A stretch of 64,000 nucleotides of DNA from a virus. Its lineage: Duplodnaviria; Caudoviricetes. Of this stretch, positions 1-58,986 are shown piece by piece. The stretch is taken from IMG/VR virus record IMGVR_UViG_3300025389_000011. One strand, written 5' to 3'. Positions within the stretch are counted from its first letter, which is position 1. Each line of letters opens with the position of its first letter. Under the pieces are notes generated by a model. That model saw nothing but the letters and a program-made list of their open reading frames with translations, searched no databases and was not told the DNA's origin. Made by a program: the position numbers and the translations under genes.

Positions 1-780
1 TGTATACTCTAATTTAACATTTGGCATTAATTGTTTAACTTGTTTAACGTTATTAATAATTGTATCCCATTTTTCTCCATGTCTCCAATATTCGGCAGAA
101 TCTTCAACTGCATCTATACTTACTCTAAAAATAACATCACTAAAATGTTTCCATTTATCAAAAATGTGTTGGTTCTTAAATGTCAATAGTGATGCATTAC
201 TGTAATATAACAACTGAGGGTCTAGTTTGTTTTCTATAAGATAATCTAAAAAGTCCCAATGTTGCCATTGTAGTAGAGGCTCTCCTCCACTAAAGGTAAC
301 TGTTTTTAGATTACTAGCAATTTGCTTTGACTGATTTAATATAAAATTTTCATCTATCCCAGAATAACGTAATACCGGAAACTTCCAATTTAAGTATTTT
401 TTTTCTTCTGTGGCAATTGGTGAACTGGTATTTGGTATGCACGTTCTGCATTTAGAATTGCATATGTTTGAAAATCTAACTTCTAAGTGAGAAAAATTAT
501 CTGATTCAAAAATAGTTTTATCAGTTTTTGACAACCAAAATTGTCTATTGCTACCAATATTTTGGTCTATCTCCTCTAAATTATAACATGAATTACATAA
601 TGGATTTCTAATACCATTTTTCATGTCTGATTTTAATTGTTGTAGTTTTTCGTCTTTCAGATATTCATCAATTGTTTTGACATTGACCATGTTGTTTAAC
701 GAACAGGGTCCCATTTTGTTGTCCATGTCATAATGAACAGCACCAAAAGCCAATGGACATATATATCTGTTATCGGTCAT
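1..780 (-). CDS. Radical SAM protein with N-terminal twitch/SPASM-like Cys cluster (3' end runs off the window; not in the ORF track)
   Basis: My translation from ATG at 780 (ATGA overlap with the upstream stop) is open to base 1: MTDNRYICPLAFGAV...PCSL...LCNSCY...LEVRFSNICNSKCRTC...FSGGEPLL...SIDA. It has CxxxCxxC and GGEP motifs. Confidence 0.9.
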   Translation of the reverse strand, partial: MTDNRYICPLAFGAVHYDMDNKMGPCSLNNMVNVKTIDEYLKDEKLQQLKSDMKNGIRNPLCNSCYNLEEIDQNIGSNRQFWLSKTDKTIFESDNFSHLEVRFSNICNSKCRTCIPNTSSPIATEEKKYLNWKFPVLRYSGIDENFILNQSKQIASNLKTVTFSGGEPLLQWQHWDFLDYLIENKLDPQLLYYSNASLLTFKNQHIFDKWKHFSDVIFRVSIDAVEDSAEYWRHGEKWDTIINNVKQVKQLMPNVKLEYT

Positions 781-2309
781 TGTAAATCTGGGTTAACAAA
801 CACATCTTTACTAGGATCTTCAGCAGGATGAATTGGAATATACCCTGTACCATCACTATATTGACCTGTTGTGATTTCTGTTTCAGTTGGTAAGTCTGTG
901 TCAATACTATCGTAAAAGTCTACAAACTCTTGCGGGAATGTATTACGGAAGTCTTTACCTCTACGAATATCATATTGATGGTAGAATTGTTTAAAGTCAC
1001 GTTTGTTTTGCTCAGGGTCTTTAACATTTTTGTGCGGAGTTTTAATAACGTCAAGATAGTCAATCAGTCGTTGTGTTTGCTCACGCTCAATATGCATAAG
1101 AATTGGGCTACCGCCTGTTGTTCTTTCATCTTTTGCAATTTGTTCATCTAACCATACTTGTAGTTTTTCGCTGTACTTTTGACGAACATCCATTGGCAAT
1201 AATGAGCAACTTTGAAAGCTAGGGAAACGTAAGATGTTCAAACTCATTGTTGGATAGTGAGTGTCATGCTTACGCTTAAATGCTAGTATTTCATCCATGA
1301 ACTCAGTAATACTTGCTAAACACAAACTATTGATTGTCATCATAATGTGTGTCTTTTTGATATTACCTTCAGTATGTAAACGTGTTAAATTATGAATCCA
1401 TTTATCCCAAATGAAACCATCACGAATATATTCGCTATGTGCGCCTAAACTTTCTGCGCTAGTGTATACTTCTAAGTGCGGGACAAAGTGACTTAACTCA
1501 ATCAATCTATCCATGATATCATCTTTAGGAACTAAGTTACTGTTAATCGCATAACGCATAACTTTTCCATCTTTACGATTTTTAACACGTTCTTGATTTG
1601 CTTTGAACCATTCGAATAGTTTCCATACGCCCGGAGCCATTAATGGCTCCCCACCTGTAATGCGAATTTCTTCTAAGTTATCTGCAAGACCATCTTCTTG
1701 TTCCCACCAACGCCAAAAGGCTTGAATATATGGGTTAACTTCATCAGGCAATGGCTTTGCGTGGTCTGCCGCATTAACAAAGTGACTACGGGCATCACCA
1801 TCGATGTTACGATATGGGCCATACTTGTGAATGTCTTTTACCCATGTTGTGCTAAAACTAGGGTTACAATAACTGCAACCAAAGTTGCATGTTCTATCAA
1901 AACTAATTTCTAATGTACGCAACATTGTGTTTTCTTGCCAATCTGCTTTGGCAGTTTTTAAAATATGTTCTTCTTCAAATACAGCAGTCTTGTATACGCG
2001 GTCACTGATGTTGTTACGACCAATATCTTCAATCTTCCAGCAGTACTCACACTCTTGTGGACGTGTGCCTTCCTGCATCATTTTACGCATAAGTTTTTTA
2101 TGTGGAGTATTATGAATTGCTGAAGGGTTTTCAATCAATTCATTGGCATCAATTTGATGACCTAATGGGTGGTGACAGCTTGTTGTTTGACCATTACCCA
2201 ACCAAATAGTTGCGTTTAGCCATTTTGCCGCACAATAACTCTCACTAATTGGATCAATCAATCGTGCTTTATACTCTGCAAAACTTTCTGTGTGTTTTTT
2301 ACCTGCCAT
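777..2309 (-). CDS. Radical SAM protein with N-terminal twitch domain
   Basis: CNFGCSYC, ITGGEPL, and an N-terminal YCAAKW...SCHHP...CEYCW Cys cluster. Confidence 0.92.
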   Translation of the reverse strand: MAGKKHTESFAEYKARLIDPISESYCAAKWLNATIWLGNGQTTSCHHPLGHQIDANELIENPSAIHNTPHKKLMRKMMQEGTRPQECEYCWKIEDIGRNNISDRVYKTAVFEEEHILKTAKADWQENTMLRTLEISFDRTCNFGCSYCNPSFSTTWVKDIHKYGPYRNIDGDARSHFVNAADHAKPLPDEVNPYIQAFWRWWEQEDGLADNLEEIRITGGEPLMAPGVWKLFEWFKANQERVKNRKDGKVMRYAINSNLVPKDDIMDRLIELSHFVPHLEVYTSAESLGAHSEYIRDGFIWDKWIHNLTRLHTEGNIKKTHIMMTINSLCLASITEFMDEILAFKRKHDTHYPTMSLNILRFPSFQSCSLLPMDVRQKYSEKLQVWLDEQIAKDERTTGGSPILMHIEREQTQRLIDYLDVIKTPHKNVKDPEQNKRDFKQFYHQYDIRRGKDFRNTFPQEFVDFYDSIDTDLPTETEITTGQYSDGTGYIPIHPAEDPSKDVFVNPDLQ

Positions 2310-2318
2310 GTGTTTTCC

Positions 2319-3884
2319 TTAATGTTTGGTATACGCTTTAATACATTCTCTCCAGTACCATTTTAGTTCTGGAAATATTTCCATAAAATTTGTTTGCCTA
2401 CGTCTATCGTACTCACTAATAAACATGTAGAAGTTAGTTTTATTTAGTGACACTTGGTCCGCTGGCAAAGATTCTTGCATTATAGCAAGGTCTCGCTTGA
2501 TTTTCAATATCTCATAGGGTTTAAATCCTTCGAATGTTTCCGAATAGTCTTCACCTTGTACGTTGTCTTCCATATATTTCAAACAACGTTCTACTTCTTT
2601 GATACCATATTCTCCTGCATTTTGTATGCTGAACCATGGTGGATAACGTAGAATGGGTATGTCAAAGAATACACGTTGATATTTCTTTTGCTTATAAACT
2701 TTGTGTACAATATTATTTTCTTTTTCAGTTTCAGTTTGTTCGGGTGCGATTGTAAACTCAGTTTGGGCACGTCCACCAAATTCTTCACGTAGTGTTAAAA
2801 TCATTTCTAAAAATTTATGTAAGCTGGGAATGCTTAACATGTTGAATGTATTGATAAAACTAACTGTGCTGTATTTTGTTTCACGTAAAAAGGTACGAAC
2901 ATTGTTCAACAATCTGTCAAACTCTAATCCAGTACGCATATATTCTGCTTGTTCCCCAAATCCATCTAATGATACAAACAACCAAAAGTGCTTGAAGCCT
3001 TTGTCTACATACCAATGATTACCGCTGAACTCATTAAAGTTTTCCTTGTCTTCATATGTACGTAATTCTTCTAGTGCCTTTACTTTTTCTAAAAACTTAT
3101 CAAATAGTTTTTGATCTGGAGGACACATGTTACTTGTTATACTTAATTCAAGTTGACCATGTGGGTTTTCATTTACATAGTCTAATACTTTAAATGTGTT
3201 TTTGTCCATGAGTGGTTCACCGCCGGTCATTCTAAAAACACGTAACTTACGATAAATCTCAGGAAACCATTGCCAAAATGCTTCAACATATGGATTATCT
3301 TTAGCCGCAACCTTAAGTGGCATTAGTCCCTTTTTCTCCAAATGCTCTAAGTTGTTGTGTGTCATGTCAGATAATTTATACCCACCATGTTTTTTAACTT
3401 CTTCTTCCCAACTTGTGCTTAGGTGAGGACTGCAATACATGCACTTGAAATTACATGCTTGATTAAAATTAACCTCTACATAGCGAGGGGTAACATTATA
3501 GTCAAAACTATTTGTTGTTACTTCGTCAAATGTTGGTGCGTTCCACCACTCACTACTGCGATAATGTCTATCACTCATGTGACCTTTGGGGTCATCACTT
3601 TGTGCATCTTCTACTTTCCAACAGTAACTACAACCCTCAGGTCTTTCACCGTTGAGCATTTGTTTGCGTTCATGTATTTTGATAGGTGTATTGTGTAATA
3701 CACTAGGATTATCTTTTAATAACTCTAGTGGAATCTTATGCGTAGGAGGATGGTAACAGCTTTGTGTTAATCCACTTGGCAAGTGTATTGAAACTTGTTG
3801 CCATTTTGCGAGACATAGTGATGGACTGACCGCATTCAAGCGGTCACGCATGTCTCTAGCATATTGGTCGTACTCACCCGACAT
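2319..3884 (-). CDS. Radical SAM protein with N-terminal twitch domain
   Basis: CNFKCMYC, MTGGEPL, SLDGFGEQAEYMR, and an N-terminal LCLAKW...SCYHP...CSYCW cluster. Clear paralogue of 777-2309. Confidence 0.92.
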   Translation of the reverse strand: MSGEYDQYARDMRDRLNAVSPSLCLAKWQQVSIHLPSGLTQSCYHPPTHKIPLELLKDNPSVLHNTPIKIHERKQMLNGERPEGCSYCWKVEDAQSDDPKGHMSDRHYRSSEWWNAPTFDEVTTNSFDYNVTPRYVEVNFNQACNFKCMYCSPHLSTSWEEEVKKHGGYKLSDMTHNNLEHLEKKGLMPLKVAAKDNPYVEAFWQWFPEIYRKLRVFRMTGGEPLMDKNTFKVLDYVNENPHGQLELSITSNMCPPDQKLFDKFLEKVKALEELRTYEDKENFNEFSGNHWYVDKGFKHFWLFVSLDGFGEQAEYMRTGLEFDRLLNNVRTFLRETKYSTVSFINTFNMLSIPSLHKFLEMILTLREEFGGRAQTEFTIAPEQTETEKENNIVHKVYKQKKYQRVFFDIPILRYPPWFSIQNAGEYGIKEVERCLKYMEDNVQGEDYSETFEGFKPYEILKIKRDLAIMQESLPADQVSLNKTNFYMFISEYDRRRQTNFMEIFPELKWYWRECIKAYTKH

Positions 3885-4548
3885 TGTATTCCAATAAATT
3901 AAACATTTCTACTAACTTATCATAATCAGCAAAAAATTCTTTAGGAGTTATATTGTATATATTTTTTACCACTTCACCGATTGGCACAGGTTCTATGTCT
4001 TCATACACCAGTGTATTGTCGCAAGGAAATCTATTAAGTTCTAGAATTTTCTTTATAAAATTATTAATTTCACGTATATCATACTTAACTGGTAAAGGCA
4101 TACCAAGTTGCGAAAAAGTATCATATTTGTATTGTCGATTGGTATGCAAAAAAATACAATGTGACATAAAATGATTTATATAGTTTCTTCTATACAATTT
4201 AATTAAATGATAGTTATCATTATACCATTTAAAACTACTAGGATTGCATGAAATCATATCTAATTCTGTATAGACAATTGTGCCAACACTATAACTATCG
4301 TTATTAGCTGTTACTTTTTGTAGTTTTTCAACCATGTTGAAATATGAATATTCATCGTCGGTGCCTTCCACATCAAATCTATCTGTAAAATACTCACCAT
4401 TATCATTATAAGGAATATTACTCTCTGCTAGTCTAGAACCTACTAATGCACGTAGAAAATTAGAACCAGAACGCATAGTTCCAATAATTATTGTGCCTTT
4501 TTTGTTTAAATCAAATAGTTGAGAGTTTAGCACATTTTTAGAATCCAT
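3874..4548 (-). CDS. Sulfotransferase-like (P-loop/PAPS-binding fold) protein
   Basis: IIIGTMRSGSNFLR resembles the 5'-PSB loop, and IKLYRRNYINHFMS resembles the 3'-PB R...S motif of Stf0-type sulfotransferases. Confidence 0.6.
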   Translation of the reverse strand: MDSKNVLNSQLFDLNKKGTIIIGTMRSGSNFLRALVGSRLAESNIPYNDNGEYFTDRFDVEGTDDEYSYFNMVEKLQKVTANNDSYSVGTIVYTELDMISCNPSSFKWYNDNYHLIKLYRRNYINHFMSHCIFLHTNRQYKYDTFSQLGMPLPVKYDIREINNFIKKILELNRFPCDNTLVYEDIEPVPIGEVVKNIYNITPKEFFADYDKLVEMFNLLEYNVG

Positions 4549-4549
4549 A

Positions 4550-5503
4550 TCACCAACCTTCGATTCTGCGAATGACTTCCATTTCTGTTACCAATGGTCC
4601 TAAATTACGTGCATCTGCTTTATAGTGGCGTTTGAAAAACTTACTTTGTTCTGCGGTATGCATACACATAGGTAAACCTAACTTAGCACTTAAATCATCT
4701 CCGTACTTTTTAATTAACTGTAATGGATCTTCATTTTTAACATTTTCCCACATTGCAAGATAGTTATCAAACCATTGAACTTCAATATGATTCCAGTCAG
4801 TCAGCATTGTCATGTACGTTCCCATACGTGCGCCCATGATTGCCCATTCTCCGTTTTCGGCATCTAATCCAATGTTATGCCAAATTGTTAGATTATTCAT
4901 ATTACGCATGGCTACAGTTTCTTTGAATACATCTACTGAGGGTACCGCACCTTTGTCTAAACACATCTTAACACCTTCACGGAATCCAGCACGCCATGCT
5001 TGGAAGGGAGTTTGATTTGGATATGTAGTTGAATAACAATCATGCATAGCCCAGTATAGATTATCTTTACTATCTAAACAAAAATCAGCAATACGTGTTA
5101 TATCACCTTCTGTTTGATTTTCATGTGTTTGCATTTCACGCACGTATGTTTTTGTCCAACTACTCATACCACCGTTACCATAACGTAACCCATTGATAGC
5201 ATTGATAGCTTTCCAACGAAACTGTGCTTTTTTAAATGTTTCCTCTTTATCAGTAAAATCTAGTTGAATGTTGAAGAAATTTTCTTGTGGCATATTATCG
5301 CCATCAATAAGAATAAAACGTTCTGTTTCACTGGCTTCACCTGCGGCTTTATGTGCGGCATCACTACCTTTGACACCGTCAACACGTTTGGCCCAAGGTA
5401 CCATGTTTTTAATCTTTAACCAGAATTCTTCTTTCTGTGGTTCATCATAACTAAGATAAATGCAATCTAAGTCTGCTACATCAATAATATCATCCGAGTT
5501 CAT
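4550..5503 (-). CDS. Putative GT-A fold glycosyltransferase-like protein
   Basis: IYLSYDEP first strand, AHKAA helix, and FILIDGDN (DxD after a hydrophobic strand). Confidence 0.55.
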   Translation of the reverse strand: MNSDDIIDVADLDCIYLSYDEPQKEEFWLKIKNMVPWAKRVDGVKGSDAAHKAAGEASETERFILIDGDNMPQENFFNIQLDFTDKEETFKKAQFRWKAINAINGLRYGNGGMSSWTKTYVREMQTHENQTEGDITRIADFCLDSKDNLYWAMHDCYSTTYPNQTPFQAWRAGFREGVKMCLDKGAVPSVDVFKETVAMRNMNNLTIWHNIGLDAENGEWAIMGARMGTYMTMLTDWNHIEVQWFDNYLAMWENVKNEDPLQLIKKYGDDLSAKLGLPMCMHTAEQSKFFKRHYKADARNLGPLVTEMEVIRRIEGW

Positions 5504-5861
5504 ATATAGTAAGTTTCCATTTCATTTTATCATTAAATGATTCGTCAACTACGATACTTACATCCTCGCTATAACAACTGATTCCGTCATTGCTTGGCAT
5601 TAATTTATAAACAACAGCATCTGCTTTCGCTGTTGAAATTCTACCATCAATAACTTTTATATCATGACGGGCTTCGGCAAATGTTTGTTTATCGATAACA
5701 ATATAGTTACCACCTTCAATATGGCAGGATTTATCTCCTACATATGAAATAACATTACCTTTATCGTCATAATATAATCTAAATTCGGGAGGCACCATAA
5801 CAGGTGGTTCCCAAACAATAAGAAAATCTGCGTTTTTGTCTTTTACGTATCTGACTGTCAT
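5490..5861 (-). CDS. Hypothetical protein
   Basis: 123-aa ORF overlapping both neighbours in the operon. Confidence 0.7.
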   Translation of the reverse strand: MTVRYVKDKNADFLIVWEPPVMVPPEFRLYYDDKGNVISYVGDKSCHIEGGNYIVIDKQTFAEARHDIKVIDGRISTAKADAVVYKLMPSNDGISCYSEDVSIVVDESFNDKMKWKLTIYELG

Positions 5862-6607
5862 TTTATGCTTTCCAGTATTTTATCAGAAAAATTCTTAATA
5901 TGATAGTGAAATGGATATTGTTGTGATACTGTTTGCACTCTAATTTGGTTTGGTAAACATTCGTACACAAATGTGTCTGTCCAATTTTCAGTTGGGTTGT
6001 TGTTTACAAACTGTTTCATGTGTACCATACTCATTTCATTAAATGAAGGTAATGTTGTTTTTTCAACTCCTACAATATGACATGCAATAGCATATGCCCA
6101 ATCTGTACTAACTTCTTCTTGCGGTTTACATCTTAGTGTAGCTTTATACGTTTCCCAATTTTCAAATACATCTTTAACAACTTCAAAAAATGCTTTTGCT
6201 GTGTCAGATTTTTTAAAGTATGTTATGGCATTGTATACATCTGGTAATTTATTATCATCAATAAATCTACGGTAGGTTCTTGCATCTGAAATTTCTTGTT
6301 TGTAATTTCTAATTGTAGTTGATACAACAACATCTTGTAATGCCAAAATATCCCACCAGTGCTCTATACTGCGTGGTATATACATGTCACTTTCTAATTT
6401 GATTGTTTCATCATATGGGCTAGCCTCATATACTTGCCAATCATTTTGATATCCACCTAAATCTCCATATGGTAACATATCACTGGTTATAATTGTAATA
6501 TTTGCATTAGGCATTACACGTAGTATGCTTTTACTTAATGCTTCAGCACATTTTGTATATTTTGTTTGCTCGGTATCCTGAGCCATGATTACAAACCCTT
6601 TACTCAT
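5858..6607 (-). CDS. Putative glycosyltransferase-like protein (GT8-like, DxD variant ESD)
   Basis: YEASPYDETIKLESDM, NAITYFKKS and STDWAYAIA motifs. Paralogue of 6604-7407. Confidence 0.55.
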   Translation of the reverse strand: MSKGFVIMAQDTEQTKYTKCAEALSKSILRVMPNANITIITSDMLPYGDLGGYQNDWQVYEASPYDETIKLESDMYIPRSIEHWWDILALQDVVVSTTIRNYKQEISDARTYRRFIDDNKLPDVYNAITYFKKSDTAKAFFEVVKDVFENWETYKATLRCKPQEEVSTDWAYAIACHIVGVEKTTLPSFNEMSMVHMKQFVNNNPTENWTDTFVYECLPNQIRVQTVSQQYPFHYHIKNFSDKILESIK

Positions 6608-7407
6608 GCTATAAGCTCCATAAAATTATCTTTGTTCATCATGTGAAAGTCTGTATCTTTAACCATTGAATATTCTTTACGAATTTTTCCTTTAGTCCAG
6701 TTATCAAACATAACGGTATATTCTGTGTTGAATTCATCATCATTGTTTCTGTATACACTTGTGTTTTTACCAACGTGTACCAAATTCCATGGAATAATAT
6801 CTTCGGTAGGAGAAGTATGACCATTGGTAATACGTGCGGCTAATGTTAGTGCATAATCATTTCTAAATGTAATAGAAATAAAACCGTGCAATGTTGCATA
6901 GTGGTCGTAATTAGATTGAATCATTTCTAAACATTCAAATATTTGTTTAGCACGATTTGTCTTTTTGAACATTACAACAGTTGCCCACATAGTCTTAAAA
7001 CTATATACGCTAATCATGTCTTGGTCAGAGTTTGGATGCATTAAAAAACTAGTAGAATCATGGCAACAAAAATCTGTTGGCAATTCAAAAAGTTTTAACA
7101 ACTTATCTGAATTAACCATGTAATCTGTGTCCAATAGTATTGTTTCATCATATGGACTTAAGTCATAAGCACGAAATCTACCTTTATTCATCCACACACC
7201 CCATTCACGACTATTGGTTTTATCGGCTGTGGTTATAATGGTATTATCAAAAATATAAGTTTGATTTTGTGGCAATGACTCTTCATCCGTTACCAATGTA
7301 ACTGGAAGTCCCAAAAAGTGATTAATACGTTTAGCAGTAGCCACTGCCATTTCGTAATAATTGTATTTTGGACTATTAAAGGCGAATAATAGTACCCCTT
7401 GGCTCAT
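6604..7407 (-). CDS. Putative glycosyltransferase-like protein (GT8-like)
   Basis: YDLSPYDETILLDTDY (DxD), WATVVMFKK and RNDYALTLA motifs. Confidence 0.6.
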   Translation of the reverse strand: MSQGVLLFAFNSPKYNYYEMAVATAKRINHFLGLPVTLVTDEESLPQNQTYIFDNTIITTADKTNSREWGVWMNKGRFRAYDLSPYDETILLDTDYMVNSDKLLKLFELPTDFCCHDSTSFLMHPNSDQDMISVYSFKTMWATVVMFKKTNRAKQIFECLEMIQSNYDHYATLHGFISITFRNDYALTLAARITNGHTSPTEDIIPWNLVHVGKNTSVYRNNDDEFNTEYTVMFDNWTKGKIRKEYSMVKDTDFHMMNKDNFMELIA

Positions 7408-7709
7408 CTGTTATTCTCTAGTTCTGTCCATTCATCGTGCCAATCACTCATTACTGTTGTATAAGTATCTTGTAATTTGGCTAACAATGTTTTTCTGTCT
7501 ACTTTGACAGGATTGTTAAAAGTGTCAATAAGAATTACTTCTTTTGACTTGCTTGAATTCAAAAAATTGATGGTTGTTAAATCAGCACGCCAAAGACCAT
7601 TTTGTTCGGCAACAATAAGTTTGCTGTCGTATTTGTCTTTTAAATAGGCTTTGGCTGAGTTATGATTGAAACGTGCTTTGGCTTCGTTAATTAATGTCTT
7701 TGTGTCCAT
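7404..7709 (-). CDS. Hypothetical protein, first gene after a late promoter
   Basis: 101-aa ORF with an AGGAG RBS, preceded by TATAAATA. Confidence 0.8.
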   Translation of the reverse strand: MDTKTLINEAKARFNHNSAKAYLKDKYDSKLIVAEQNGLWRADLTTINFLNSSKSKEVILIDTFNNPVKVDRKTLLAKLQDTYTTVMSDWHDEWTELENNR

Positions 7710-7728
7710 GTATATACTCTCCTATGAG

Positions 7729-7736
7729 TATTTATA
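7729..7736 (-). promoter_or_regulatory. T4-type late promoter TATAAATA
   Basis: Exact T4 late consensus about 20 nt upstream of the 7709 start; it heads the GT/ST/rSAM operon. Confidence 0.7.
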
Positions 7737-7761: not shown

Positions 7762-8715
7762 TTATGAACCCGAAACAGTACCGGTTACAGTAATTGTACC
7801 CCAAGTATTACTTAAGTATGTTGTTTCTGGAACAACTGCTGTTACTGTTGTAGCAGAACCTGTACCAACAGTTAAGCCACCAGGAATCTCGTCCCAAATT
7901 GTGTATAAAGTAATAACACTACCTGTGTCACTGTGTGAACCTTGCGTACCATTTGATTTAGCAACAACACGAATAAATGTGTTTACATAACCTGAAGGGC
8001 TACCTGTCGCTGTTTGTGTAAACACGTTAGCATTGCTTGTTGTTAATGCATAATATCCGTTATTTGTTAATACAGTTGGTGAATTACCACCTCCACCAAC
8101 TTTTTGAACACCGCTATACGATGTACTTGCAATTGTTGCTGTACCTGAACTAGGTGCGCTTATTACAATTGTACCAACGTTACTTGCTAATTGGTTCATT
8201 AGTAAGTTAATACCCGAAGTATTATTTGGATTACTACATGTAATTTTTAATTGTCCACCTGAGTTAAAGAAATACCGTGCGGCATCACCGTTTGCAAAAG
8301 TAATTGTGTGAGTAAATGTCAATGCAGTTGACCAAGTACTACCATAAGTTGCTGTGTTAGCAACAGTGGTTCCTTGACTGGCTGCATTTAATCTAGGTGA
8401 ATAGATTGATGTTAAGTTTGTAGGGATAGCTGACAAATAAGTAATAACACCGCCCACAACTGGAGCAGTAACTGCTGTGATACTTGTGCCTTGATGTGAA
8501 GCGGCATTAGAAGTTTTATTAACTAAGTTAGCCCAATCACTAGCAAAAACTGAATTACCTGCAGATACGTTTGCTAATGCAGTTTGACCATAACCTGCGG
8601 TTGAGCCGCCGGTTGCCCATACTGTGTTTAATGCACCTGATGTAGTGACAGGATCGCCACCTACTAGTGCATTATAGTCACTAGCTTGAATTGTTCCGTA
8701 TTGTGCGTATGACAT
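7762..8715 (-). CDS. Virion structural protein (tail/baseplate fibre-associated)
   Basis: 317 aa, Thr/Ser/Gly-rich and beta-rich, within the baseplate arm, with an AGGA RBS. Confidence 0.6.
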   Translation of the reverse strand: MSYAQYGTIQASDYNALVGGDPVTTSGALNTVWATGGSTAGYGQTALANVSAGNSVFASDWANLVNKTSNAASHQGTSITAVTAPVVGGVITYLSAIPTNLTSIYSPRLNAASQGTTVANTATYGSTWSTALTFTHTITFANGDAARYFFNSGGQLKITCSNPNNTSGINLLMNQLASNVGTIVISAPSSGTATIASTSYSGVQKVGGGGNSPTVLTNNGYYALTTSNANVFTQTATGSPSGYVNTFIRVVAKSNGTQGSHSDTGSVITLYTIWDEIPGGLTVGTGSATTVTAVVPETTYLSNTWGTITVTGTVSGS

Positions 8716-8733: not shown

Positions 8734-9993
8734 TTATTTAATTGATACGATTGCTAGAACCAAACCAATTTCGTCTGTGGTTTTGTCTGCTAATGCACGA
8801 CCTATTGAGTTGAATGGTGTAGCTTCCCCTGCTTTTGCGGCACGTGCAATGCCATTGCCTGCACTTACTAATCTGTCAGCCTTCTTAACTTGACCAATTG
8901 CTTTAACTTCTACTCTACCGGCGAGTGCTATAGGAGGGTGGGTTTTATCTGAACCTGCGGCTTGATTCATTAAATATGCCGCTGTATTTGAAACTACACC
9001 AAATACATTGTCGCTTAAATCCAATTTAACTGCGGTGATTTCTTTTTCTCCGCCTATTTCAACTACTGTACCAACTTCATATTCTTGGTCAGCTTCAAAA
9101 CGTTCTGCTAAGTCAGCGTATGTTGCTTGTAACCTTGAACCTGTTGTTAATGTAAAATTACCAGTAAGCGCACCAGCAATTGTATTTCCACCAGTTGTAA
9201 TGTTTGCTGTAGTGACACTTGCAACGCTAATCGAACCACTAAAACGTGATACTGAGTTGCTACCTGTCAAATAATCATACACGTTACCATTATTATAGGT
9301 ACCTGCAAAGCTGACAGGTGTACCATTTGCATAATAATAGTTATCTGTTCTAATACCAATATTACCGCCACCTTGGCTATTTACATTACCTATCAATAAA
9401 TTACCACCAGTGATATATACTGCGGTTCCTCCCTGAGAATTTAGTGAAGCTGAACCATTAACTGTCCAAGCACCAACAATGTTACCTGTTGTAGATGGTG
9501 AACCAGTACTGATAAATTGTGTGTATAATGATCCAATATTACCTGTTGTAACGTTTGCGTTTGCAATACTTGCATTGCTTGTTACAGTTGCTAAACGTAC
9601 TGTAATTGTGTCAGCTGCCAATGCATTAGTGATTGTAGCATTGTTTGCTGTTAAATTTCCTGTAACTTGTAGTGTGCCAAAAGTTGTTGTTCCTGAACTA
9701 CCTGATTGTGCTAATGTCAACCAAGCATTTGCATTGGTGATATAGTCTGTAGGGCAAACATTTAGTGTGTTATTATTTGTATTAAACCATAATTGGCCCT
9801 GTAATGGGTTAGGAGGAGGACTTGCATTGGCAAAATTCTCAGTTAGCCAAACAAAGTTTGTATCTAAAACGTTACCATAACCAGCATAATTACGACCGGG
9901 TAACCCGTATAGTGATGTACTATTTGTGTTGATAGTACCGTCTGCAATGGTAGTTAGTGGTTGCCCATTGAATTTATTAATCGAATATGCCAT
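8734..9993 (-). CDS. Tail-fibre/spike-like protein with C-terminal intramolecular-chaperone-like domain
   Basis: N-terminal GRNYAGYG...ENFA...PNPLQGQLWF anchor, Asn/Thr/Gly beta repeats, and C-terminal ATYADLAERFEADQEYEVGTVV...GVVS...IALAGRV. Confidence 0.65.
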   Translation of the reverse strand: MAYSINKFNGQPLTTIADGTINTNSTSLYGLPGRNYAGYGNVLDTNFVWLTENFANASPPPNPLQGQLWFNTNNNTLNVCPTDYITNANAWLTLAQSGSSGTTTFGTLQVTGNLTANNATITNALAADTITVRLATVTSNASIANANVTTGNIGSLYTQFISTGSPSTTGNIVGAWTVNGSASLNSQGGTAVYITGGNLLIGNVNSQGGGNIGIRTDNYYYANGTPVSFAGTYNNGNVYDYLTGSNSVSRFSGSISVASVTTANITTGGNTIAGALTGNFTLTTGSRLQATYADLAERFEADQEYEVGTVVEIGGEKEITAVKLDLSDNVFGVVSNTAAYLMNQAAGSDKTHPPIALAGRVEVKAIGQVKKADRLVSAGNGIARAAKAGEATPFNSIGRALADKTTDEIGLVLAIVSIK

Positions 9994-10016: not shown

Positions 10017-10023
10017 TATTTAT
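10017..10023 (-). promoter_or_regulatory. Late promoter ATAAATA
   Basis: Upstream of the 9993 start, followed by a GGAG RBS. Confidence 0.6.
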
Positions 10024-10024
10024 C

Positions 10025-10645
10025 TTAAATTGTTATTAAATTAGTTAAACTCTGTATTCTTACAGTATAATCGATTTGAATTTGTCTATTCAAACTCTTT
10101 TGTACTGGGTGAAAAATCACATGAGTTAATAAAGTAGTAATAACGTTACCGTTATTATCTGTACCGTAATTTGAGAGCAAGCCCAATTCATCAAAAACAT
10201 AAGAACTATCAGTTTGTGTACTATTATCAAATGCGGCTTGACCTGCGGGCTCACCGTAATCTAGTAAACATTGAACTAATATATCTGTATAAACTGTACC
10301 TGTCGTATGCGTTACTGTCATCTTGTTACGTGTAGGATCCAAGTTAAAAACACTAGTATCATCTACGATTTTTGCGTAAGTTTGATTGTACAATGCCGCA
10401 TTTTGTCCAGATACGTTAGGGGGCAAATAAGTAATAACGCCTGTTTCACTTACACTTGCACCACCGTTTCCAAAAGCCATTTCATAAATCTGACCATAAC
10501 CACGATTACTTAATGTGTTAGCAATTGATTCTGACATATTTTCATAATTAATGGCATTTTTCTTTTCCACAAATACTTCTCCGTTGTTAGGATCGTATAC
10601 TTTTAGAAAGCCTTCTACTTTATATGATAATTGTATTACTGACAT
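10025..10645 (-). CDS. Conserved baseplate-region structural protein
   Basis: 206 aa with FDELGL...LLTHVIFHPVQKSLNRQIQIDYTVRI, a terminal pattern typical of baseplate/fibre-junction proteins. Confidence 0.6.
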   Translation of the reverse strand: MSVIQLSYKVEGFLKVYDPNNGEVFVEKKNAINYENMSESIANTLSNRGYGQIYEMAFGNGGASVSETGVITYLPPNVSGQNAALYNQTYAKIVDDTSVFNLDPTRNKMTVTHTTGTVYTDILVQCLLDYGEPAGQAAFDNSTQTDSSYVFDELGLLSNYGTDNNGNVITTLLTHVIFHPVQKSLNRQIQIDYTVRIQSLTNLITI

Positions 10646-10812: not shown

Positions 10813-13800
10813 TTAATTTATACCGCCTCTTAGGAAATCTGCGCCCTGAGTATATGCAATCTGTAACGGATCACCGTTAACTGTGTCATAATATCCTGGG
10901 ATAGGATTCCATGTTTCATGATATAAAACATCTGTCATCATGTTAGTTGTGTTTATTCCATACACAGGAGTGTATACTGGTATGTAATTTTGTTCTCCAG
11001 TACCATTTGTTCCCCTAGATAATCCAGTGACTGTGTTGGTATTTAAATCACAGTACTCAAATCCAATCTGTTCTCCGTTAATAAACACTAATCTACCAAT
11101 ACCCACTGTAATAGTTAATGAGTCACCAATAGACACTTGGCTGTTTATCTGCAATATAGGAGCTGTATCAACAATTACAGTTTTGTAACTAGTTTGATTT
11201 AACTCTACTCCTGTAGTGTTGTTATAGACATATATGTAACAGATGTCATTTTTATTAGCACTTAAACCAATATAATAGTCCCCGTCAGTTGCGGCCGCAG
11301 GGCAAGTTGCATTTTGTACAATACTGTTTGTAATTTTTTTAACATCATTAAAATGTATTATACTATCCGTGTATTGCAATGGTTGTGTTAACCAAGTTCT
11401 ATTATTTCCATTAGTTCTGAAAACATTTCCTTGATTTGAAGCAGACACGTTTAACAAATAAACTTCTTCGTTTGGTGTAGCACTTGGCATCATACTTGTA
11501 ATAATAACCTCATCACCTGTTTGAATTGTAGTTAATATGCTTAAATCGTTATATGGGTTTAGTATTAACTTACTTGAAGGAACACGATACCCGTTTATTG
11601 TTACCCATAATCTATCTACGTTAATTTGTACAAATTGTGACACAAACACTTTACCTGTATCAGTTGTTAATACAAACTCACTTTGATTTGGATATTGCTT
11701 TGTGCTAATTGTAAATTCTTGGTCTGCTGTGGCAGTTCCTGTTCCACTACCATAACCTGTTGCAATGAATGTAACGCCAATTGTGTTAGAACTTGCGCCA
11801 ACTGCGGTGAAATTAGTAGTACCTAATGTTACAATCGTATATTGATTTCCAATAATAAAGTTTCCTGCAGTTGTAATAGGACTTACTTCATAAACATAGT
11901 ATTCTACGTCAGCTTGAATACCACCTAAAATATTGTCACCAAAAGTTGAATTTACAGTAGTAAAGTATACAGGAGTATTAGGTATTAATCCTTGTGTGCT
12001 TACCACTGTTATTCTATTACCAGTAGAATTTGTTGCTGTTGTGTTTGTGTTTGAAAGTGTGAACACTCTATCTAACCAAACATAACCATCACCTATGTAT
12101 GTTGAACAATTAGTTACAGGGAAGTTAGGGGCATTTAATGTTGGAGTATATGCTTGTAGATACAAATCAATAATTTTACTTGTAACTATTTTAGCATAAA
12201 ATACATTATTATTCAATTGTACGGAACCAACAGTACCATCTATACGTATCAATGAGTTTTCAGCTAAATTATGGTCAATTCCAGTTGTCACACGAATAGC
12301 TGGCTGACCTCCTGCATATCCAACAATAGTTCCTGTACTATAATCAGTCAATTGAATTGTTGTACCATATTGGTCTGTGATTGTAAAACTTGTATCGTCA
12401 ATAATTGTGCCTACAATATAGTATTCACCAGTTGTACTGATTCCCCCATATGTGCCAGGCGTTTGAGCTTTGAATATAATAAATTGTCCCGGTACCACTG
12501 GGTGTGTCGCATTATAAACAATTGCATTTGTTCCGGAAATTGTTTGAGATACTAATACTGTTGAACTTGCAGGGGTAATGGCATTGTCGATATTAACAAT
12601 ATTAGCCACAGTTAAACCATTCAATGAACCGTTCATTGTACCAGTATCACTAGTAACTGGGAACACAGCACCACCAACTTGAGTTGAAATAGTAAAGTCT
12701 GTAGAATTTAATATTTGAAGAATATAGTAAACTTGTCCGGCGATAATTCCACCAAATGTAGGTGATGAAAACACGATTGGGCTGTTGACAGTTAAATCTG
12801 CCGTAGTACCTGTACTCAAATGTAAGTAATTAAATTGTTCGTCATATGTTACAATTTGTGGATTATTTTCATCATATGTATATGTATTTGGGCTATTTTC
12901 ATCGTATGTAGCCAATGTATTTACAGTAGCACCAACTACAACTTCAACAAATACTGAGCCAGGACTTCCAGTGATACCATATTGAGTATTTAAATATTGA
13001 CGGTCAGTTAAGTTATATGTAGTAACTGCTACCGTTGAGTTTAATAGGGGCGGAGTATAGAACAAAATAGTATTTGTTGAACTATTAATTGAATATAATC
13101 CTATTGTTTGACGTAAGCCATTAATCTCTACAATTGCATTGTTTGGATTGTCACCACCGCAATAGTTTACCAAATTAAATGTTGATTTAGATGCATTACC
13201 AAAGAACACTTGTGTTTGTGGTATTGTGTAACCATATTGTATAGGAGATGTTTGTCCCAATACAGTATAGCTAATATAATCTACTGCTGTGTTGTATGTT
13301 TGTGCAAGAATAATCTTAGCGTTAATTCCATTATCTGCTATACCTAATGCAAAGTCGTTAGATATATAAGTTGCTACACCTGATTCAGTTGACACAACAA
13401 ATACTGGACCACCTGCAGTCTCACTAATGGTGATTCTATCGTATCCTAATATTTGTTTAACGTAGTATGTTATGTATGGAGTAATTCCACCAAAAATACC
13501 GGGACCAAACGTAATTGGCATATTGGGTACAAAGTTATATGTTGAATTAACAATTATTAAATTATCAAAAGAAAGTGTATTTGTAACTATACCAGATTCA
13601 CCCAATACTAATAAATTACCATTATGGTATACCGCTGGTGGAGTCCAAACAACACCATCACCATTTTGAGAGATAGCTTTCATGCTACCACTTGCTGTAG
13701 TTAAATCAAAAGTAACACCTGCTGTACCTGTAGAAAGATTGATACTTGTTGATATAGTAATTCTATTTGATATGTCATCAATTGTTTTTACGTAATAAGG

Positions 13801-16800
13801 AGTTTCTATTGCAACACCACCAAACACAGTTCCTTCAAAAGTTATTACGTTGTTTAATGCAATATTAGCCACTGTATCAAGCGTTATTTGATTTGTGGTT
13901 GAATCAGTATGTGTTGCAGTTGCAATGTAGGGTTGTGATCCTGGTCTGATAACCCCTGAACCTTGATAGATACTTGCACTATAATTTGCATTTAAGTAAA
14001 TTTCTTGGAAGCCAGTAGTTTCGTTTGTTCTAATTGGATTGTTACTCGTACTAGATTTAACCAATTGGTCACCGTTACCAGTTTCATACAAATCAATACG
14101 TAATGAATCTGCGTTGCCAGGGCTTGTAAATGACAATGAGTTTGTCAATATGATTAATTGATTTACCCAATCAACGGTATAGAATCCGTTTTCTTCGTAA
14201 ACTCTTGTGCTTAAACCAGTCGTATAACTTGTAACATATACAGCTAATTCGCTTGGAGTTGTAGCTATACTTGCAAAACTATATTCAGTTTGAGTACCGC
14301 TAGTTGCCTGTATCTCAATTGATTTAGTGCCATAACCTAGGTTTTGATATACTGTGGCGTCCCAGTTTGTACCAGGACGTGTAGCTACTGTCATTGTTAA
14401 TGTGTCGCTTACCACACCAGGTACCAATTCTTCTGGACCATAACCACTAGTAAATGAGTCACCTTGTACATCGTATACAGTAGGTGGATTTCTAAATATA
14501 CTACCTATTGTCCAACCAGATGTGTTACCCTGTAATACCGTGTTGTTATCTCCTACAACAAGATATTCATTAGTATCACTATTGTATGTAACACTTCTTA
14601 AGTTTTGCGTTGTGCCTGAAGTTTGTGTAGTCCAAGTTGTACCGTCAACTGTTCCGTACACTATGGCACCATTATCACCTACAGCCACAAATCTATTATT
14701 AATGTTGTCCCATATAATTTTGTTTAAATTTTCAGTTGTACCTGATGTTTGTACAAACCAAGTATACGTGTTAAATGTAGTATAAATGCTACCGCCTTGG
14801 CCAACAGCAACTATAGTATCAATATTACTTGCAACAGAATTAAGTCCATATTGAGTAGTAAAGGTTAATGGACTCCATGATATACCATCTCTACTAGAGA
14901 AAATAATTGCGACATTATTGATAACTAAATTAGTTGAAACTTGCCCTGAACCAACAGCAATAAATCCAGTGAATCCTGCTGTGTTTGCATATGTTACTCC
15001 TGTCAAATTATTTTCTAATGTGCCAGTAAATTCATAACGTTGTTTCCAATCATTAATATCTGTTGCAGTAACAATATTTTTTCCTACTGCAACATATAAA
15101 CCATTTGCATATGCAATACTGCTTAATCCAGTTGAAGGTACTACAGTTGATGGAGTACTAAAGGTTGTGCCATCAATACTTATTAATATTGGAGTAGCAC
15201 TATTGTTTCCTGTTAGTACATATTCACCATCAACATATATAATGTCATATAAACCAATTGGTGTATTAGCTAACTGTAGGCTAGACCATGTTACTCCGTC
15301 AACACTAGCATTAATTGATGAGTTGTTACCCGAATCACTTGTTGCGATATAAGCATGGTTGTTATATAATACTGCTGATAAATTAATGCCAGTTGGGTAA
15401 AATGGTTGGTCTTGTAAGATAGTATCTAACGGATAATTATCAGCCGGTGCAAATGCATTACCTAAATACGTACTATTTGGATAAGTAATACCTGTTACCA
15501 ATTGTGTTAAATCTACACCTGGCATGTCAACAGTTGGTTGATAGTAACCAATAATTCTATCAAGCGCATTAAGTTTACTTGAACCTGAAGTTAATAATTC
15601 CCATTTACCAAAAATGAAGTCAGCATCATTATTACTTACAATACATTGGTAAACATTATTATTGTACTTAACAATACTACTGTTAAAATAGAATGGTTCT
15701 GGTAATAATAAGTAATCACCTGACTTAGCCATTGTCATTGATCCAGTTGCATTTGTTGTAATTGTAAATGCACTACCACCGATACTTGTACTAATAGTTA
15801 TAGTCGTTGATGTAGGTTTAGTTAGAATATAATATGTTTGACCAATTGTTATACCGCCAAATACAGTTCCCGTAAACACAACAGGATCATTGATATTAAA
15901 TTCAGTATTGCTTACAACAGTAATAACATTACCAGTGGTTGCAGTTTGTGTTGCAGTTGTACTTGTTATTCCTTTATATGGTAAGTTTTGTCCACTCACT
16001 GATACCTTCAAGTTAGGATCGCTGTATAGTGCAATTTGATTTACGTCTACTACATCTACATAATATTTGTTGTCCAATCCAGGTGTTACACCTGTTGCAA
16101 TAGTTCCAGTAATACCACCTGTACTATTAATTGCGGACACAGTTAATGTTAAATCATTTGCCGGTGTAGTTCCTCCTACTGAAGTACCAGGTATTACAAT
16201 GGTATTGTTTATTGCGTATCCAACACCTGCACTTGAAAATGCCACATTGTATCCACCTAAAATATAACTAACGTCAAAACTTGCATAGTTACTTGGATTA
16301 ATATATTGTGTTAATGAAATTGTATTAGTTGTTGCATTTGTTAAAGTGTTGCTTAACACAACATATGGGTCACCTGTACCAGTCATACTACCTGTATCGT
16401 TAGATACTGATAACGGTAATGAGCTTCCAACTGAAGTAGCTATAGTAAATCTTCCTTCACCGCTTGGAGGGCTATTATCAATGCTATGTACATAGTAAAT
16501 TACATTTAATAAAACATTACCTAATGATGTTCCTGAGAAGTATATCGGCATGCCAACATATAATACATCAGTTGAATTAGTACCATTAACTGTTAACCAA
16601 TTTCCAGTGCTACTAGTGCTTAACACCTGAACTGAAGTTACTCCAGTGTTTACGACTGTGTATTCTGTTCCAGTAGTTAATCCACCAATATTACCACTAA
16701 CATTAAATTGCATGTTAGTATAAATGTTGGTTATTCCAGGTCCAGTTTGACTCAAGCAAACTCTATTAACTGTTGCCAATGTAGCTGTAAGATTTATGTT

Positions 16801-43022: not shown

Positions 43023-44039
43023 ATGACTAACCTATTTAAAAAAGCTGCCGTTTTTACGGATATTCACTTTGGACTAAAAAGCAATAGCATACAGCACAAT
43101 GAAGACTGTATGAATTTTGTTGATTGGTTTATACAAAAAGCCAAAGCAGAAAATTGTGAAACATGTTTCTTTTTGGGTGATTACAATCACCACAGAGCAA
43201 GTATCAACATTCACACACTACAGTTTGGTCTACAAGCATTGGAAAAACTAAGTGCCAATTTTGATACGGTGTATTTTATCCCCGGCAATCATGACCTTTA
43301 TTATCGTGACCGTCGTGATATTCATAGTGTCGAGTGGGCTAAACATTTGCCGAATGTAAAAATTGTCAATGACTTTTTTAGTGAGGGTGATGTAGTTATT
43401 GCTCCTTGGTTAGTACATGATGATTATAAAAAAATTCAAAAACTAAGTGGCAAATACTTATTTGGTCATTTTGAATTACCCCGATTTTACATGAACGCTA
43501 TGGTTGAAATGCCCGACCATGGTGAAATTAACACAGACCATATGCGTGGCTTTGATAAAGTATTCAGTGGTCACTTTCACAAGAGGCAAAGTCGTGCCAA
43601 TGTTTGGTATATTGGTAATGCTTTCCCGCATAACTATGCTGATGCAGGAGATGATGCACGGGGAATGATGATACTTGAGTGGGGTGAAGATCCAATCTTT
43701 CATAGTTGGCCACGTCAACCAGTGTATCGTGTACACAAATTGAGTGATATCTTAGAAAGCCCGGAACAGTATCTTTTGATTGATAGTCATGTTAGAGTAC
43801 ATCTTGATATTGATATCAGCTATGAGGAGGCTAATTTTTTGCGTGAAACATTTATACCAGAATACAAACTAAGAGAAATGTCGCTTATCCCAATTAAGGG
43901 TGAGGCTGTAGAACAAGGCATGAGTGCTGACGGTCTTAAGTTTGAAAGCGTTGACCAAATTATTATTGACCAAATCAATGCAATTGAAAGCAATAGTTTT
44001 GACAAAAAAATACTTTTGGACATCTATAATAATCTATGA
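43023..44039 (+). CDS. gp47: Recombination endonuclease subunit, gp47/Mre11/SbcD-like
   Basis: Metallophosphoesterase motifs TDIHFG, LGD, PGNHD, GHF and SGHFH. Confidence 0.92.
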   Translation: MTNLFKKAAVFTDIHFGLKSNSIQHNEDCMNFVDWFIQKAKAENCETCFFLGDYNHHRASINIHTLQFGLQALEKLSANFDTVYFIPGNHDLYYRDRRDIHSVEWAKHLPNVKIVNDFFSEGDVVIAPWLVHDDYKKIQKLSGKYLFGHFELPRFYMNAMVEMPDHGEINTDHMRGFDKVFSGHFHKRQSRANVWYIGNAFPHNYADAGDDARGMMILEWGEDPIFHSWPRQPVYRVHKLSDILESPEQYLLIDSHVRVHLDIDISYEEANFLRETFIPEYKLREMSLIPIKGEAVEQGMSADGLKFESVDQIIIDQINAIESNSFDKKILLDIYNNL

Positions 44040-58521: not shown

Positions 58522-58616
58522 ATTTTGTGGTACATGTATTTGGTGGTGTAATATTTGTTTGTATTATATATTTGGTTATTGAAGAATTAATTCAAAACAC
58601 TATTAAGAAATCCTAA
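58515..58616 (+). CDS. 33-aa single-pass membrane peptide (not in the ORF track)
   Basis: AAGGAG RBS, then MLDFVVHVFGGVIFVCIIYLVIEELIQNTIKKS*; overlaps the desaturase stop. Confidence 0.5.
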   Translation: MLDFVVHVFGGVIFVCIIYLVIEELIQNTIKKS

Positions 58617-58978: not shown

Positions 58979-58986
58979 TATTTATA
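58979..58986 (-). promoter_or_regulatory. Late promoter TATAAATA for the HNH-like gene
   Basis: Exact consensus 4 nt upstream of ATG 58974. Confidence 0.6.

Follow-up and report, generated by a model that had tools for sequence, protein, structure and literature searches.

A glycosyltransferase and radical SAM operon beside the tail-fiber genes of a T4-superfamily jumbo phage: a candidate pathway for virion glycosylation

Results

A long minus-strand operon at the end of the tail-fiber arm

The 64,000-nt stretch of the viral record IMGVR_UViG_3300025389_000011 (the window) begins with an operon of glycosyltransferase (GT) and radical S-adenosylmethionine (SAM) enzyme genes, all on the minus strand, which lies directly downstream of tail-fiber genes. 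Nine minus-strand open reading frames (ORFs) at positions 1-7709 were confirmed where a preliminary description of this DNA had placed them. Together with the motif that precedes them they are, in the direction of transcription:

7729..7736, minus strand: late-promoter-like motif TATAAATA, 19 nt before the ATG of o101 at 7709
7404..7709, minus strand: o101, first gene of the operon, a small soluble protein of 101 amino acids (aa) from no known family
6604..7407, minus strand: o267, predicted GT8-like retaining GT-A glycosyltransferase, 267 aa (AlphaFold2 model, Foldseek)
5858..6607, minus strand: o249, predicted GT8-like paralogue of o267, 249 aa (hhalign, profile match)
5490..5861, minus strand: o123, small soluble protein of unknown fold, 123 aa, overlapping o317 by 14 nt
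4550..5503, minus strand: o317, predicted GT-A glycosyltransferase of a large unnamed viral family, 317 aa (AlphaFold2 model, structure matches)
3874..4548, minus strand: o224, sulfotransferase-like accessory enzyme, 224 aa (Atlas model)
2319..3884, minus strand: r1, core radical SAM protein of family NF033640, 521 aa (288 bits)
777..2309, minus strand: r2, second NF033640 radical SAM paralogue, 510 aa (290 bits)
1..780, minus strand: r3, third NF033640 radical SAM protein, first 260 of 377 residues, with ten further radical SAM genes beyond the window

Along the nine ORFs the intergenic distances are -4, -4, -4, -14, +1, -11, +9, and -4 nt, in agreement with the earlier statement that all of them overlap or are separated by 9 nt or less. 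The four proposed ATGA overlaps fall on the 4-nt overlaps at 7404-7407, 6604-6607, 5858-5861, and 777-780; the letters ATGA were read directly at 7407-7404, and the three others were deduced from the ORF coordinates.

The metagenomic contig k141_82741 (ENA ERZ27271967, 105 kb) is identical to the window across all 15,503 shared bases, and on it the operon extends beyond window position 1. The full transcription unit comprises 26 genes with gaps of at most 9 nt, possibly 30 genes, and contains 13 radical SAM genes. Thus, the preliminary count of nine genes with a triple radical SAM set was an artefact of the window edge, and we read the window region as the first third of a long transcription unit. 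After r1 and r2, radical SAM genes encoding 377, 469, 392, 427, 377, 385, 438, 447, 417, and 398 aa are followed by three genes for proteins of approximately 250 aa with weak GDSL/SGNH matches and then by the thirteenth radical SAM gene (424 aa). The sole larger gap in the unit, 120 nt, follows this gene approximately 15.1 kb beyond window position 1 and is occupied by a strongly basic ORF of 34 codons; beyond it lie genes for a 280-aa protein, a NodU/CmcH-type carbamoyltransferase (PF02543/PF16861), and a 1770-aa protein. No further late-type motif was found until GATAAATACTCTTAG, which lies after the 1770-aa gene and in front of the gene that follows.

The three glycosyltransferases

The earlier assignment of three genes to glycosyltransferases was borne out at the level of predicted structure for o317 and o267, and by paralogy and profile similarity for o249. 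The AlphaFold2 model of o317, based on 44 homologues, had a predicted local distance difference test (pLDDT) score of 92.6. Its residues 3-170 form a GT-A domain, i.e. a single Rossmann-like α/β/α nucleotide-sugar-binding domain, with B4GALNT1 at VIA Z 9.7; the GT-A alignments covered approximately 140 residues at VIA Z 9.7-7.5 and root mean square deviations of 3.0 to 3.8 Å. Further structural matches were PBCV-1 A64R, SunS/ThuS, TarP, and cellulose synthase, and the Foldseek matches were exclusively to GT-A or nucleotidyltransferase folds. The DxD residues D67 and D69 (IDGDN segment) are kept in at least 90% of 44 sequences at 30-44% identity. No clear structural match was obtained for the C-terminal helical half.

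No match to o317 was found in Pfam, NCBIfam, or PHROG, and curated GT family models (Pfam GT2 and others) did not recognize it; sub-threshold GT2 matches occurred in two longer family members only. The protein therefore belongs to a new family within the GT-A fold and not to GT2 as now modelled, and its group would define at least one new glycosyltransferase family. This family is large: one search scored at least 8000 proteins, a separate search gave 1144 clusters at 50% identity, and approximately 99 viral Atlas clusters lacking a Pfam domain belong to it. In many members, of approximately 740 aa, a GT-B domain of the EryCIII/UDPGT/GT28 type is fused at the N-terminus.

For o267 (pLDDT 91.5), the top Foldseek matches were glycogenin-1/2 (E 5e-7, template modelling (TM) scores 0.43-0.50), and α-1,3-GalT, the catalytic domain of UGGT, GlyE, and LARGE1 were matched at E ~5e-7; 317 matches had E ≤1e-3. 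Residues D93 and D95 of o267 are invariant, as are E72 and D74 of o249, which has ExD instead of DxD; H255 in o267 and H196 and H234 in o249 are also invariant and are candidates for the C-terminal metal-binding His of GT8 enzymes. The two proteins are paralogues (hhalign 99.5%, E 4e-23), and the o249 profile matched glycogenin at E 0.002-0.03, the match at E 0.002 spanning the DxD region. The Pfam GT8 model PF01501 matched neither protein even at E ≤10, and o267 had no Pfam match at all. Searches of Pfam, PHROG, and NCBIfam with the six of the nine proteins that are not radical SAM enzymes returned only one unnamed PHROG, for o249, and profile searches against the PDB yielded no meaningful match to o317, o267, or o224.

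The sulfotransferase-like protein and the small proteins

The Atlas model of the exact o224 protein (pLDDT 0.69, moderate) matched sulfotransferase clusters at TM 0.64-0.72, and all ten of its best named feature matches lie in the sulfotransferase clan (Stf0, Sulfotransfer_3, NodH); no Pfam or PDB sequence match was found. Across the 10 homologues retrieved, G23, R26, S27, and G28 as well as R120 and S129 are conserved or invariant. The Gly..Arg-Ser-Gly loop may correspond to the 5'-phosphosulfate-binding loop (5'-PSB) and the Arg...Ser pair to the 3'-phosphate-binding element (3'-PB) for 3'-phosphoadenosine-5'-phosphosulfate (PAPS). The predicted fold agrees with the proposed sulfotransferase-like assignment, but the gene is an accessory one, present in 2 of the 80 related loci described below.

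The small genes o101 and o123 are present in 79 and 70 of these 80 loci, respectively. The o101 alignment contains no Cys and no variable core, and o101 gave a weak Pfam match to T4 Gp45.2 (E 0.023); o123 matched no family in Pfam, PHROG, or NCBIfam. Both were considered as precursors of ribosomally synthesized and post-translationally modified peptides (RiPPs) and rejected in this role, as they are uniformly conserved and globular-looking and o101 has no Cys.

The cassette and the fiber genes in related phages

The genes immediately upstream of the operon are:

7762..8715, minus strand: f317, Ser/Thr-rich fiber-like protein directly upstream of the cassette (Ser + Thr 29%)
8734..9993, minus strand: f419, tail-fiber/spike-like protein with an IMC autoproteolytic chaperone domain (PF11962, 26.3 bits at a cut-off of 25; PHROG matches)
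10025..10645, minus strand: f206, conserved virion-module protein at the head of the fiber block (phrog_11259)
10813-29826, minus strand: giant ORF of 6337 aa between a gp6-like baseplate wedge gene and the fiber genes

The upstream region further contains homologues of a baseplate hub/lysozyme protein and of two baseplate wedge proteins, so that the earlier placement of the operon at the end of a tail-fiber arm is fair. The chaperone domain of f419 is of the Peptidase_G2 IMC type. No Pfam family was found in either half of the 6337-aa ORF; homologous giant ORFs stand before the fiber block in nearly all related loci. The phage is a member of the T4 superfamily; the SbcC-like homologue of gp46 that it encodes shares 49% identity with its counterpart in Pseudomonas phage PA5oct.

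A profile scan of IMG/VR retrieved at least 589 loci with a relative of o317, the best 80 of which were analyzed. This synteny survey found the cassette beside fiber genes in 80 metagenomic phage loci, with the near-universal order giant protein, f206, f419, f317, o101, o267, o249, o123, o317, and a stretch of radical SAM and variable genes. The f206 gene was present in 74 of the 80 loci, and f317 was syntenic with the cassette in at least 75. The downstream slot carries from one to seven or more radical SAM genes. In 58 loci the downstream sequence covered a full 10 kb; 46 of these had between four and seven radical SAM ORFs, and six had a single one. The slot after o317 contains an NAD-dependent sugar epimerase/dehydratase in 16 loci; it also holds a nucleotidyltransferase-kinase fusion, HAD phosphatases, an RmlC-like epimerase, a DegT aminotransferase, UDP-glucose dehydrogenase, hexapeptide acyltransferases, FkbM methyltransferases, a Stf0 sulfotransferase, and DUF6071. 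Judged by these predicted functions, its content is that of a nucleotide-sugar and glycan-tailoring locus. An unnamed family of approximately 368 aa (L047:12271-13377 and 66 relatives) follows the first radical SAM gene in most loci of the far clade; it lacks CxxxCxxC, has no Pfam or PHROG match, and is absent from this phage.

The cassette is abundant in metagenomic data. Within a set of 50,697 phage records it was found in Ralstonia phage RsoM2USA only, and DNA searches of these records with the region gave no match at near or distant sensitivity. In RsoM2USA, gp355 resembles f317 and gp354 is homologous to o101 (hhalign 97.9%); gp353 and gp352 form a GT8-like pair, o317 is matched by gp350 and r1 by gp349, and gp348 adds a second o317-like gene. 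Linkage to f317- and f419-like fiber genes is kept in RsoM2USA and in marine contigs at 41-44% o317 identity. The layout of fiber genes and cassette was also observed on contigs binned into metagenome-assembled genomes (MAGs) of Haliscomenobacter (L096, L097, L173), Legionellales (L094), and marine Rickettsiales MED657 (L118, L120, L152); these contigs carry radical SAM arrays (approximately 13 places in L152) and a carbamoyltransferase and are most likely mis-binned jumbo-phage contigs. The phages of the "moraphage" paper were set aside as relatives; they form a different lineage with hosts among the Bacteroidota. Literature searches on radical SAM enzymes, jumbo phages, and glycosyltransferases, and on RsoM2USA, yielded no prior description of such a system.

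The related genomes bear on whether the glycosyltransferases might act on DNA, adding tailored sugars to modified bases with the radical SAM enzymes taking part in base hypermodification. All operon enzymes are predicted to be cytoplasmic, and DNA hypermodification with diverse glycans by phage GT-A and GT-B enzymes, sometimes beside sugar epimerases, is documented (bioRxiv 10.1101/2023.12.21.572611). The same source places the documented pathways next to genes for C5-methyltransferase/5mYOX or a ThyA-family hydroxymethylase. The genomes of five relatives with the cassette, of which three reach 92% completeness or more, yielded no C5-methyltransferase (PF00145) and hold at most one ThyA-family gene, which matched E. 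coli-type thymidylate synthase at 3.7e-87, and no second hydroxymethylase. A Tet_JBP search of the relatives gave no match, as did its control. With fiber genes as neighbors and a late-type promoter in this phage, a DNA target is very improbable.

The radical SAM array

The radical SAM genes of the operon were compared with NCBIfam NF033640, the family of twitch domain-containing radical SAM proteins (N_Twi_rSAM), in which the twitch domain is N-terminal. Ten paralogues scored well over the curated cut-off of 170 bits (194-365 bits), one at 170.0 (r8), and one just under it at 166.2 (r7); individual scores were 288 for r1, 290 for r2, 260 for full-length r3, 295 for r4, 324 for r5, 283 for r6, 338 for r9, 365 for r10, and 242 for r11. 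Two proteins fall outside the family, r12 with 38 bits and r13 with a weak match to Pfam Radical_SAM (E 6.9e-5, 23.5 bits, cut-off 29.5). By these scores, eleven or twelve of the 13 genes belong to NF033640. The motif CxxxCxxC is present in all 13 proteins (at residue 144 in r1), C19, C38, C79, and C82 of an N-terminal Cys cluster are conserved across 11 aligned paralogues, and Pfam SPASM matched the N-terminus (residues 14-83) of r9 and r10. The radical SAM identity proposed earlier therefore stands, as family matches support real enzymes, but their number is 13 and not three. Pairwise identities among the aligned paralogues are 19-32%, which argues for an old array and not for recent amplification.

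Two observations couple the array to the glycosyltransferases: in 38 loci the gene immediately following o317 is r1-like, and r1 is the best match for 70 downstream ORFs across the 80 loci. In RsoM2USA, gp349 is 35% identical to r1 and overlaps a GT gene. Chromosomes of Bdellovibrionales and Myxococcales likewise have radical SAM genes together with genes for a carbamoyltransferase and GDSL/SGNH-like proteins. The position of the r1-like gene beside o317, the packing of 13 copies with glycosyltransferases, and this recurring bacterial co-location speak for a role of the radical SAM enzymes in the same pathway. In the Bdellovibrionales chromosomes (L175-L177), a conserved cluster flanked by lon on one side and the NADH dehydrogenase genes on the other has the order patatin, two to three NF033640 genes, class-V aminotransferase, sometimes a GDSL-like gene, DUF5989, and carbamoyltransferase.

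The array could instead be independent of the glycosyltransferases, an expanding accessory family at an insertion-tolerant locus that acts on, for example, a nucleotide, a cofactor, or RNA; such an origin would be compatible with a glycan function of the GT genes. Several observations that weigh against a glycan-directed role fit this explanation. Related genomes hold 2, 6, 7, 8, or 17 NF033640 copies, many of them scattered far from the cassette. In the 17-copy genome, IMGVR_UViG_3300031857_000002 (320 kb, 92% complete), many copies are single insertions between conserved genes, so that the family appears to spread around this genome. In RsoM2USA, gp202 is 49% identical to r2 but lies at another locus approximately 90 kb from the cassette. 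The low identity among the paralogues points the same way, and bacterial contexts are inconsistent: one is RiPP-like, one is the conserved Bdellovibrionales cluster, and others are orphans, tandem pairs without glycosyltransferases, or resemble small-molecule clusters. An insertion-tolerant locus would, however, hardly account for an r1-like ORF in most of the 80 loci and in RsoM2USA, so often in first position after o317, or for the translational packing of all 13 copies with the glycosyltransferases in one unit; the recurring bacterial gene set likewise suggests a shared pathway. Independence of the array is thus rather unlikely. In IMGVR_UViG_3300031857_000002, copies adjoin homologues of the window genes 56523-57719 and 43023-44039.

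Peptides are the usual substrates of SPASM and twitch radical SAM enzymes, a point that speaks for protein or peptide maturation in place of glycan tailoring. The radical SAM enzymes would then modify a fiber protein or o101/o123 by cross-linking, epimerizing, or oxidizing residues, each paralogue recognizing a different site or substrate, and the GT-A enzymes would glycosylate the polypeptide as in glycocins. Several paralogues have secondary NCBIfam matches to the peptide maturases CefB, PapB, SCIFF, and YhhB; the glycocin S-glycosyltransferases SunS/ThuS are among the structural neighbors of o317; and the scattered copies in the 17-copy relative adjoin conserved genes, partly of the structural module. 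On the Cellvibrionaceae chromosome OZ252214.1, an NF033640 gene stands between a 70-aa ORF and a GT2 gene and adjoins genes for an HlyD-like protein and a C39-peptidase ABC exporter, possibly a glycosylated RiPP cluster in which the enzyme is peptide-directed. The operon described here nevertheless has no protease, exporter, or membrane protein, no RiPP recognition element (RRE) domain was detected by Pfam or NCBIfam, and o101 and o123 do not have the layout of a leader with a variable core. The nucleotide-sugar enzymes of the variable slot indicate sugar chemistry, and the other bacterial contexts are orphan or small-molecule-cluster-like. We consider a RiPP-like maturation system unlikely.

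Literature searches on the function of NF033640 found no characterized member and no paper, and a scan of genome contigs with one of the radical SAM proteins gave no match. A 2.5-kb contig in a Polynucleobacter MAG (L095) encodes a radical SAM protein 38% identical to r10, a weak hint at a betaproteobacterial host.

Promoter motifs upstream of the cassette

The perfect TATAAATA motif reported for the operon start was confirmed on the minus strand at 7736-7729. This sequence is depleted in the window, with 3 copies versus 12.1 expected. The two other perfect copies are at 58979-58986 (minus strand), 4 nt before the ATG of a 123-aa ORF (58603-58974), and at 51139-51146 (plus strand), within a 1147-aa ORF. 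The 7-mer ATAAATA has 14 copies in the window, nine of them at most 50 nt upstream of a start codon on the same strand, a class of positions that makes up 1.4% of the window; the motif class is therefore real beyond chance. Starts preceded by ATAAATA include those of baseplate and fiber genes, and f419 has its own copy at 10017-10023. In the near clade, (C/A)TAAATA is kept upstream of the o101 homologues in 28 of 29 loci, in the conserved context ...TCTAAATACTC.TAGGAG. The perfect motif, the enrichment of ATAAATA upstream of starts, and the conservation in the near clade together point to a putative T4-type late promoter. A sigma-70 promoter was also considered for the 52-nt gap upstream of o101 in this phage, where a promoter scan showed none.

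The far clade differs. In 28 of its 41 loci a GC-rich terminator hairpin and a sigma-70-like promoter precede the cassette, the latter of the form TTTAC/TTGAC-N16-19-TAnAnT approximately 60 nt upstream of the o101 homologues (loci L043-L092), and the late motif precedes it in 4 of 41 only. In the same loci the fiber gene f419 retains its late motif (40 of 44). The description of the operon as late-expressed is thus supported by a late-type motif in this phage and its near clade but does not extend to the far clade, which is mostly sigma-70-like. As judged from these motifs, the late-type signal is genuine for this phage, but not all phages with the module place it under late control. The switch in promoter class between the clades provides a natural experiment on the expression timing that the module requires.

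Discussion

The operon very probably builds and tailors a glycan, as the preliminary description had proposed, and the nucleotide-sugar and tailoring genes of its relatives support this part of the proposal. The virion as target and an action of the radical SAM enzymes on the glycan are, by comparison, what we infer. The core o101, o267, o249, o123, o317, and r1 would use nucleotide sugars to build a short glycan on an acceptor in the cytoplasm, and the hypervariable downstream slot would supply tailoring enzymes, in this phage the sulfotransferase-like enzyme, the 12 other radical SAM paralogues, three SGNH-like proteins, and the carbamoyltransferase, and in its relatives enzymes of nucleotide-sugar synthesis and modification. 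The most likely acceptor would be a virion surface protein encoded by the neighboring genes, the Ser/Thr-rich f317 being the first candidate, and each phage lineage would display its own decorated glycan on its fibers.

None of the 26 operon proteins has a membrane helix (maximum KD19 1.39), and no flippase, polymerase, or polyprenyl-phosphate transferase was found among them. A cytoplasmic acceptor is therefore expected, and an exported lipid-linked glycan is disfavored. The same finding speaks against the remodelling of the host surface that had been suggested as an alternative late function, and against a host-directed or soluble glycoconjugate in general, such as a rewired host nucleotide-sugar pool, a modified envelope precursor, or a soluble glycoside that might serve superinfection exclusion or keep progeny from sticking to cell debris. 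In bacteria, Stf0/NodH-type sulfotransferases and NodU-type carbamoyltransferases act on small glycosides, which would suit such a product, and the sigma-70-like promoter of the far clade fits an early, host-directed action. Phage glycosyltransferases that alter host surface glycans are well known (cited in PMC12619734). The tight and deeply conserved linkage to fiber genes is unexpected for a host-takeover module, and we regard a host-directed product as quite unlikely.

With the exported glycan and DNA disfavored as targets, the linkage to fiber genes, the Ser and Thr content of f317, and the GT8 neighbors of o267 make virion proteins the best candidate. These neighbors include the protein-glycosylating enzymes glycogenin, GlyE, and UGGT, and several GT8 enzymes glycosylate Ser, Thr, or Tyr residues of proteins. 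That a cytoplasmic glycan pathway decorates virion proteins in this phage is, in our estimate, almost an even call. Several points count against it. The reading of a virion glycan in this phage group was reached by inference from sequences and predicted structures. The synteny with fiber genes could simply mean that the end of the structural arm is a hotspot where insertions are tolerated. The paper on RsoM2USA reported virion mass spectrometry and left the cassette genes unannotated. Finally, the promoter counts of the far clade mean that late co-expression with the fibers is not a conserved property, and the promoter swap weakens the step from late expression to the virion.

Tailoring of the glycan or its acceptor by the radical SAM enzymes is somewhat less likely than not. 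Doubtful for the present is its most far-reaching form, in which the oxygen-sensitive radical SAM arrays would act as a combinatorial toolkit, each paralogue installing a different radical modification on a fiber-borne glycan or a fiber protein. If true, virion surface chemistry would differ from one lineage to the next as a viral analogue of O-antigen diversity, produced by reactions not connected with virus particles before, and NF033640 would obtain its first function. The analysis connects this family with a concrete pathway, for which the cultured phage RsoM2USA, infecting Ralstonia, offers a test system. Should the product decorate fibers, it would bear on host range, adsorption, and the surface diversification of environmental phages.

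Comparison with known systems

Virus-encoded glycosylation of particles is established for mycobacteriophages, chloroviruses, and mimiviruses; to our knowledge, no example is known among T4-superfamily jumbo phages of Gram-negative hosts. We class the present system, with the qualifications given above, as putative virus-encoded particle glycosylation, distinguished by a GT-A family that is new and by a radical SAM array without precedent.

The closest functional parallel is found in the operons of mycobacteriophages of the Che8, Corndog, and Myrna type, for which, as cited in PMC12619734, virion-protein glycans were reported (Freeman et al. 2023) and phage-encoded GT genes lie in or beside the structural block. 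The Che8 glycosyltransferase is a weak structural neighbor of o317 (E 4.8e-3). The mycobacteriophages belong to another phage lineage, infect another host phylum, and show no detectable sequence relationship; unlike their operons, the cassette has radical SAM genes (up to 13), a hypervariable slot, a sulfotransferase, and a carbamoyltransferase, and its glycosylation of the virion is a prediction. The glycosylation of the PBCV-1 capsid and of giant-virus fibrils is similar in that virus-encoded cytoplasmic GT-A and nucleotide-sugar enzymes decorate the particle, and the GT-A domain of PBCV-1 A64R is a structural neighbor of o317 (E 8.9e-4). These are eukaryotic viruses for which no radical SAM arrays are described, and the similarity is at the level of fold, with 10-16% identity.

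At the level of single enzymes, o267 and o249 share fold, DxD position, and overall size with GT8 enzymes (glycogenin, LgtC-type, GlyE) but are missed by the Pfam model at identities of 11-15%, and o249 deviates by its ExD. The phage radical SAM paralogues keep the N-terminal Cys cluster and the CxxxCxxC motif of NF033640 but occur in tandem arrays of up to 12-13 copies within a GT operon.

RiPP and glycocin clusters differ from the operon in having a leader-core precursor peptide together with a leader protease or exporter. DNA sugar-hypermodification pathways (bioRxiv 10.1101/2023.12.21.572611) share phage GT-A enzymes and sometimes sugar epimerases with the cassette, but their glycosyltransferases, which are similar to JGT/TarP and have an R...DDD...EDY/F motif, neighbor C5-methyltransferase (C5-MT)/5mYOX or ThyS genes, whereas the cassette adjoins fiber genes, and its relatives were found without a C5-methyltransferase or a second ThyA-family hydroxymethylase. 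Bacterial O-antigen and capsule loci resemble it in combining, in a hypervariable cassette between conserved genes, glycosyltransferases and nucleotide-sugar enzymes with acetyl-, methyl-, sulfo-, and carbamoyltransferases; the phage island differs in that all its proteins are soluble, with no initiating polyprenyl-phosphate transferase, Wzx, Wzy, or ABC exporter among them.

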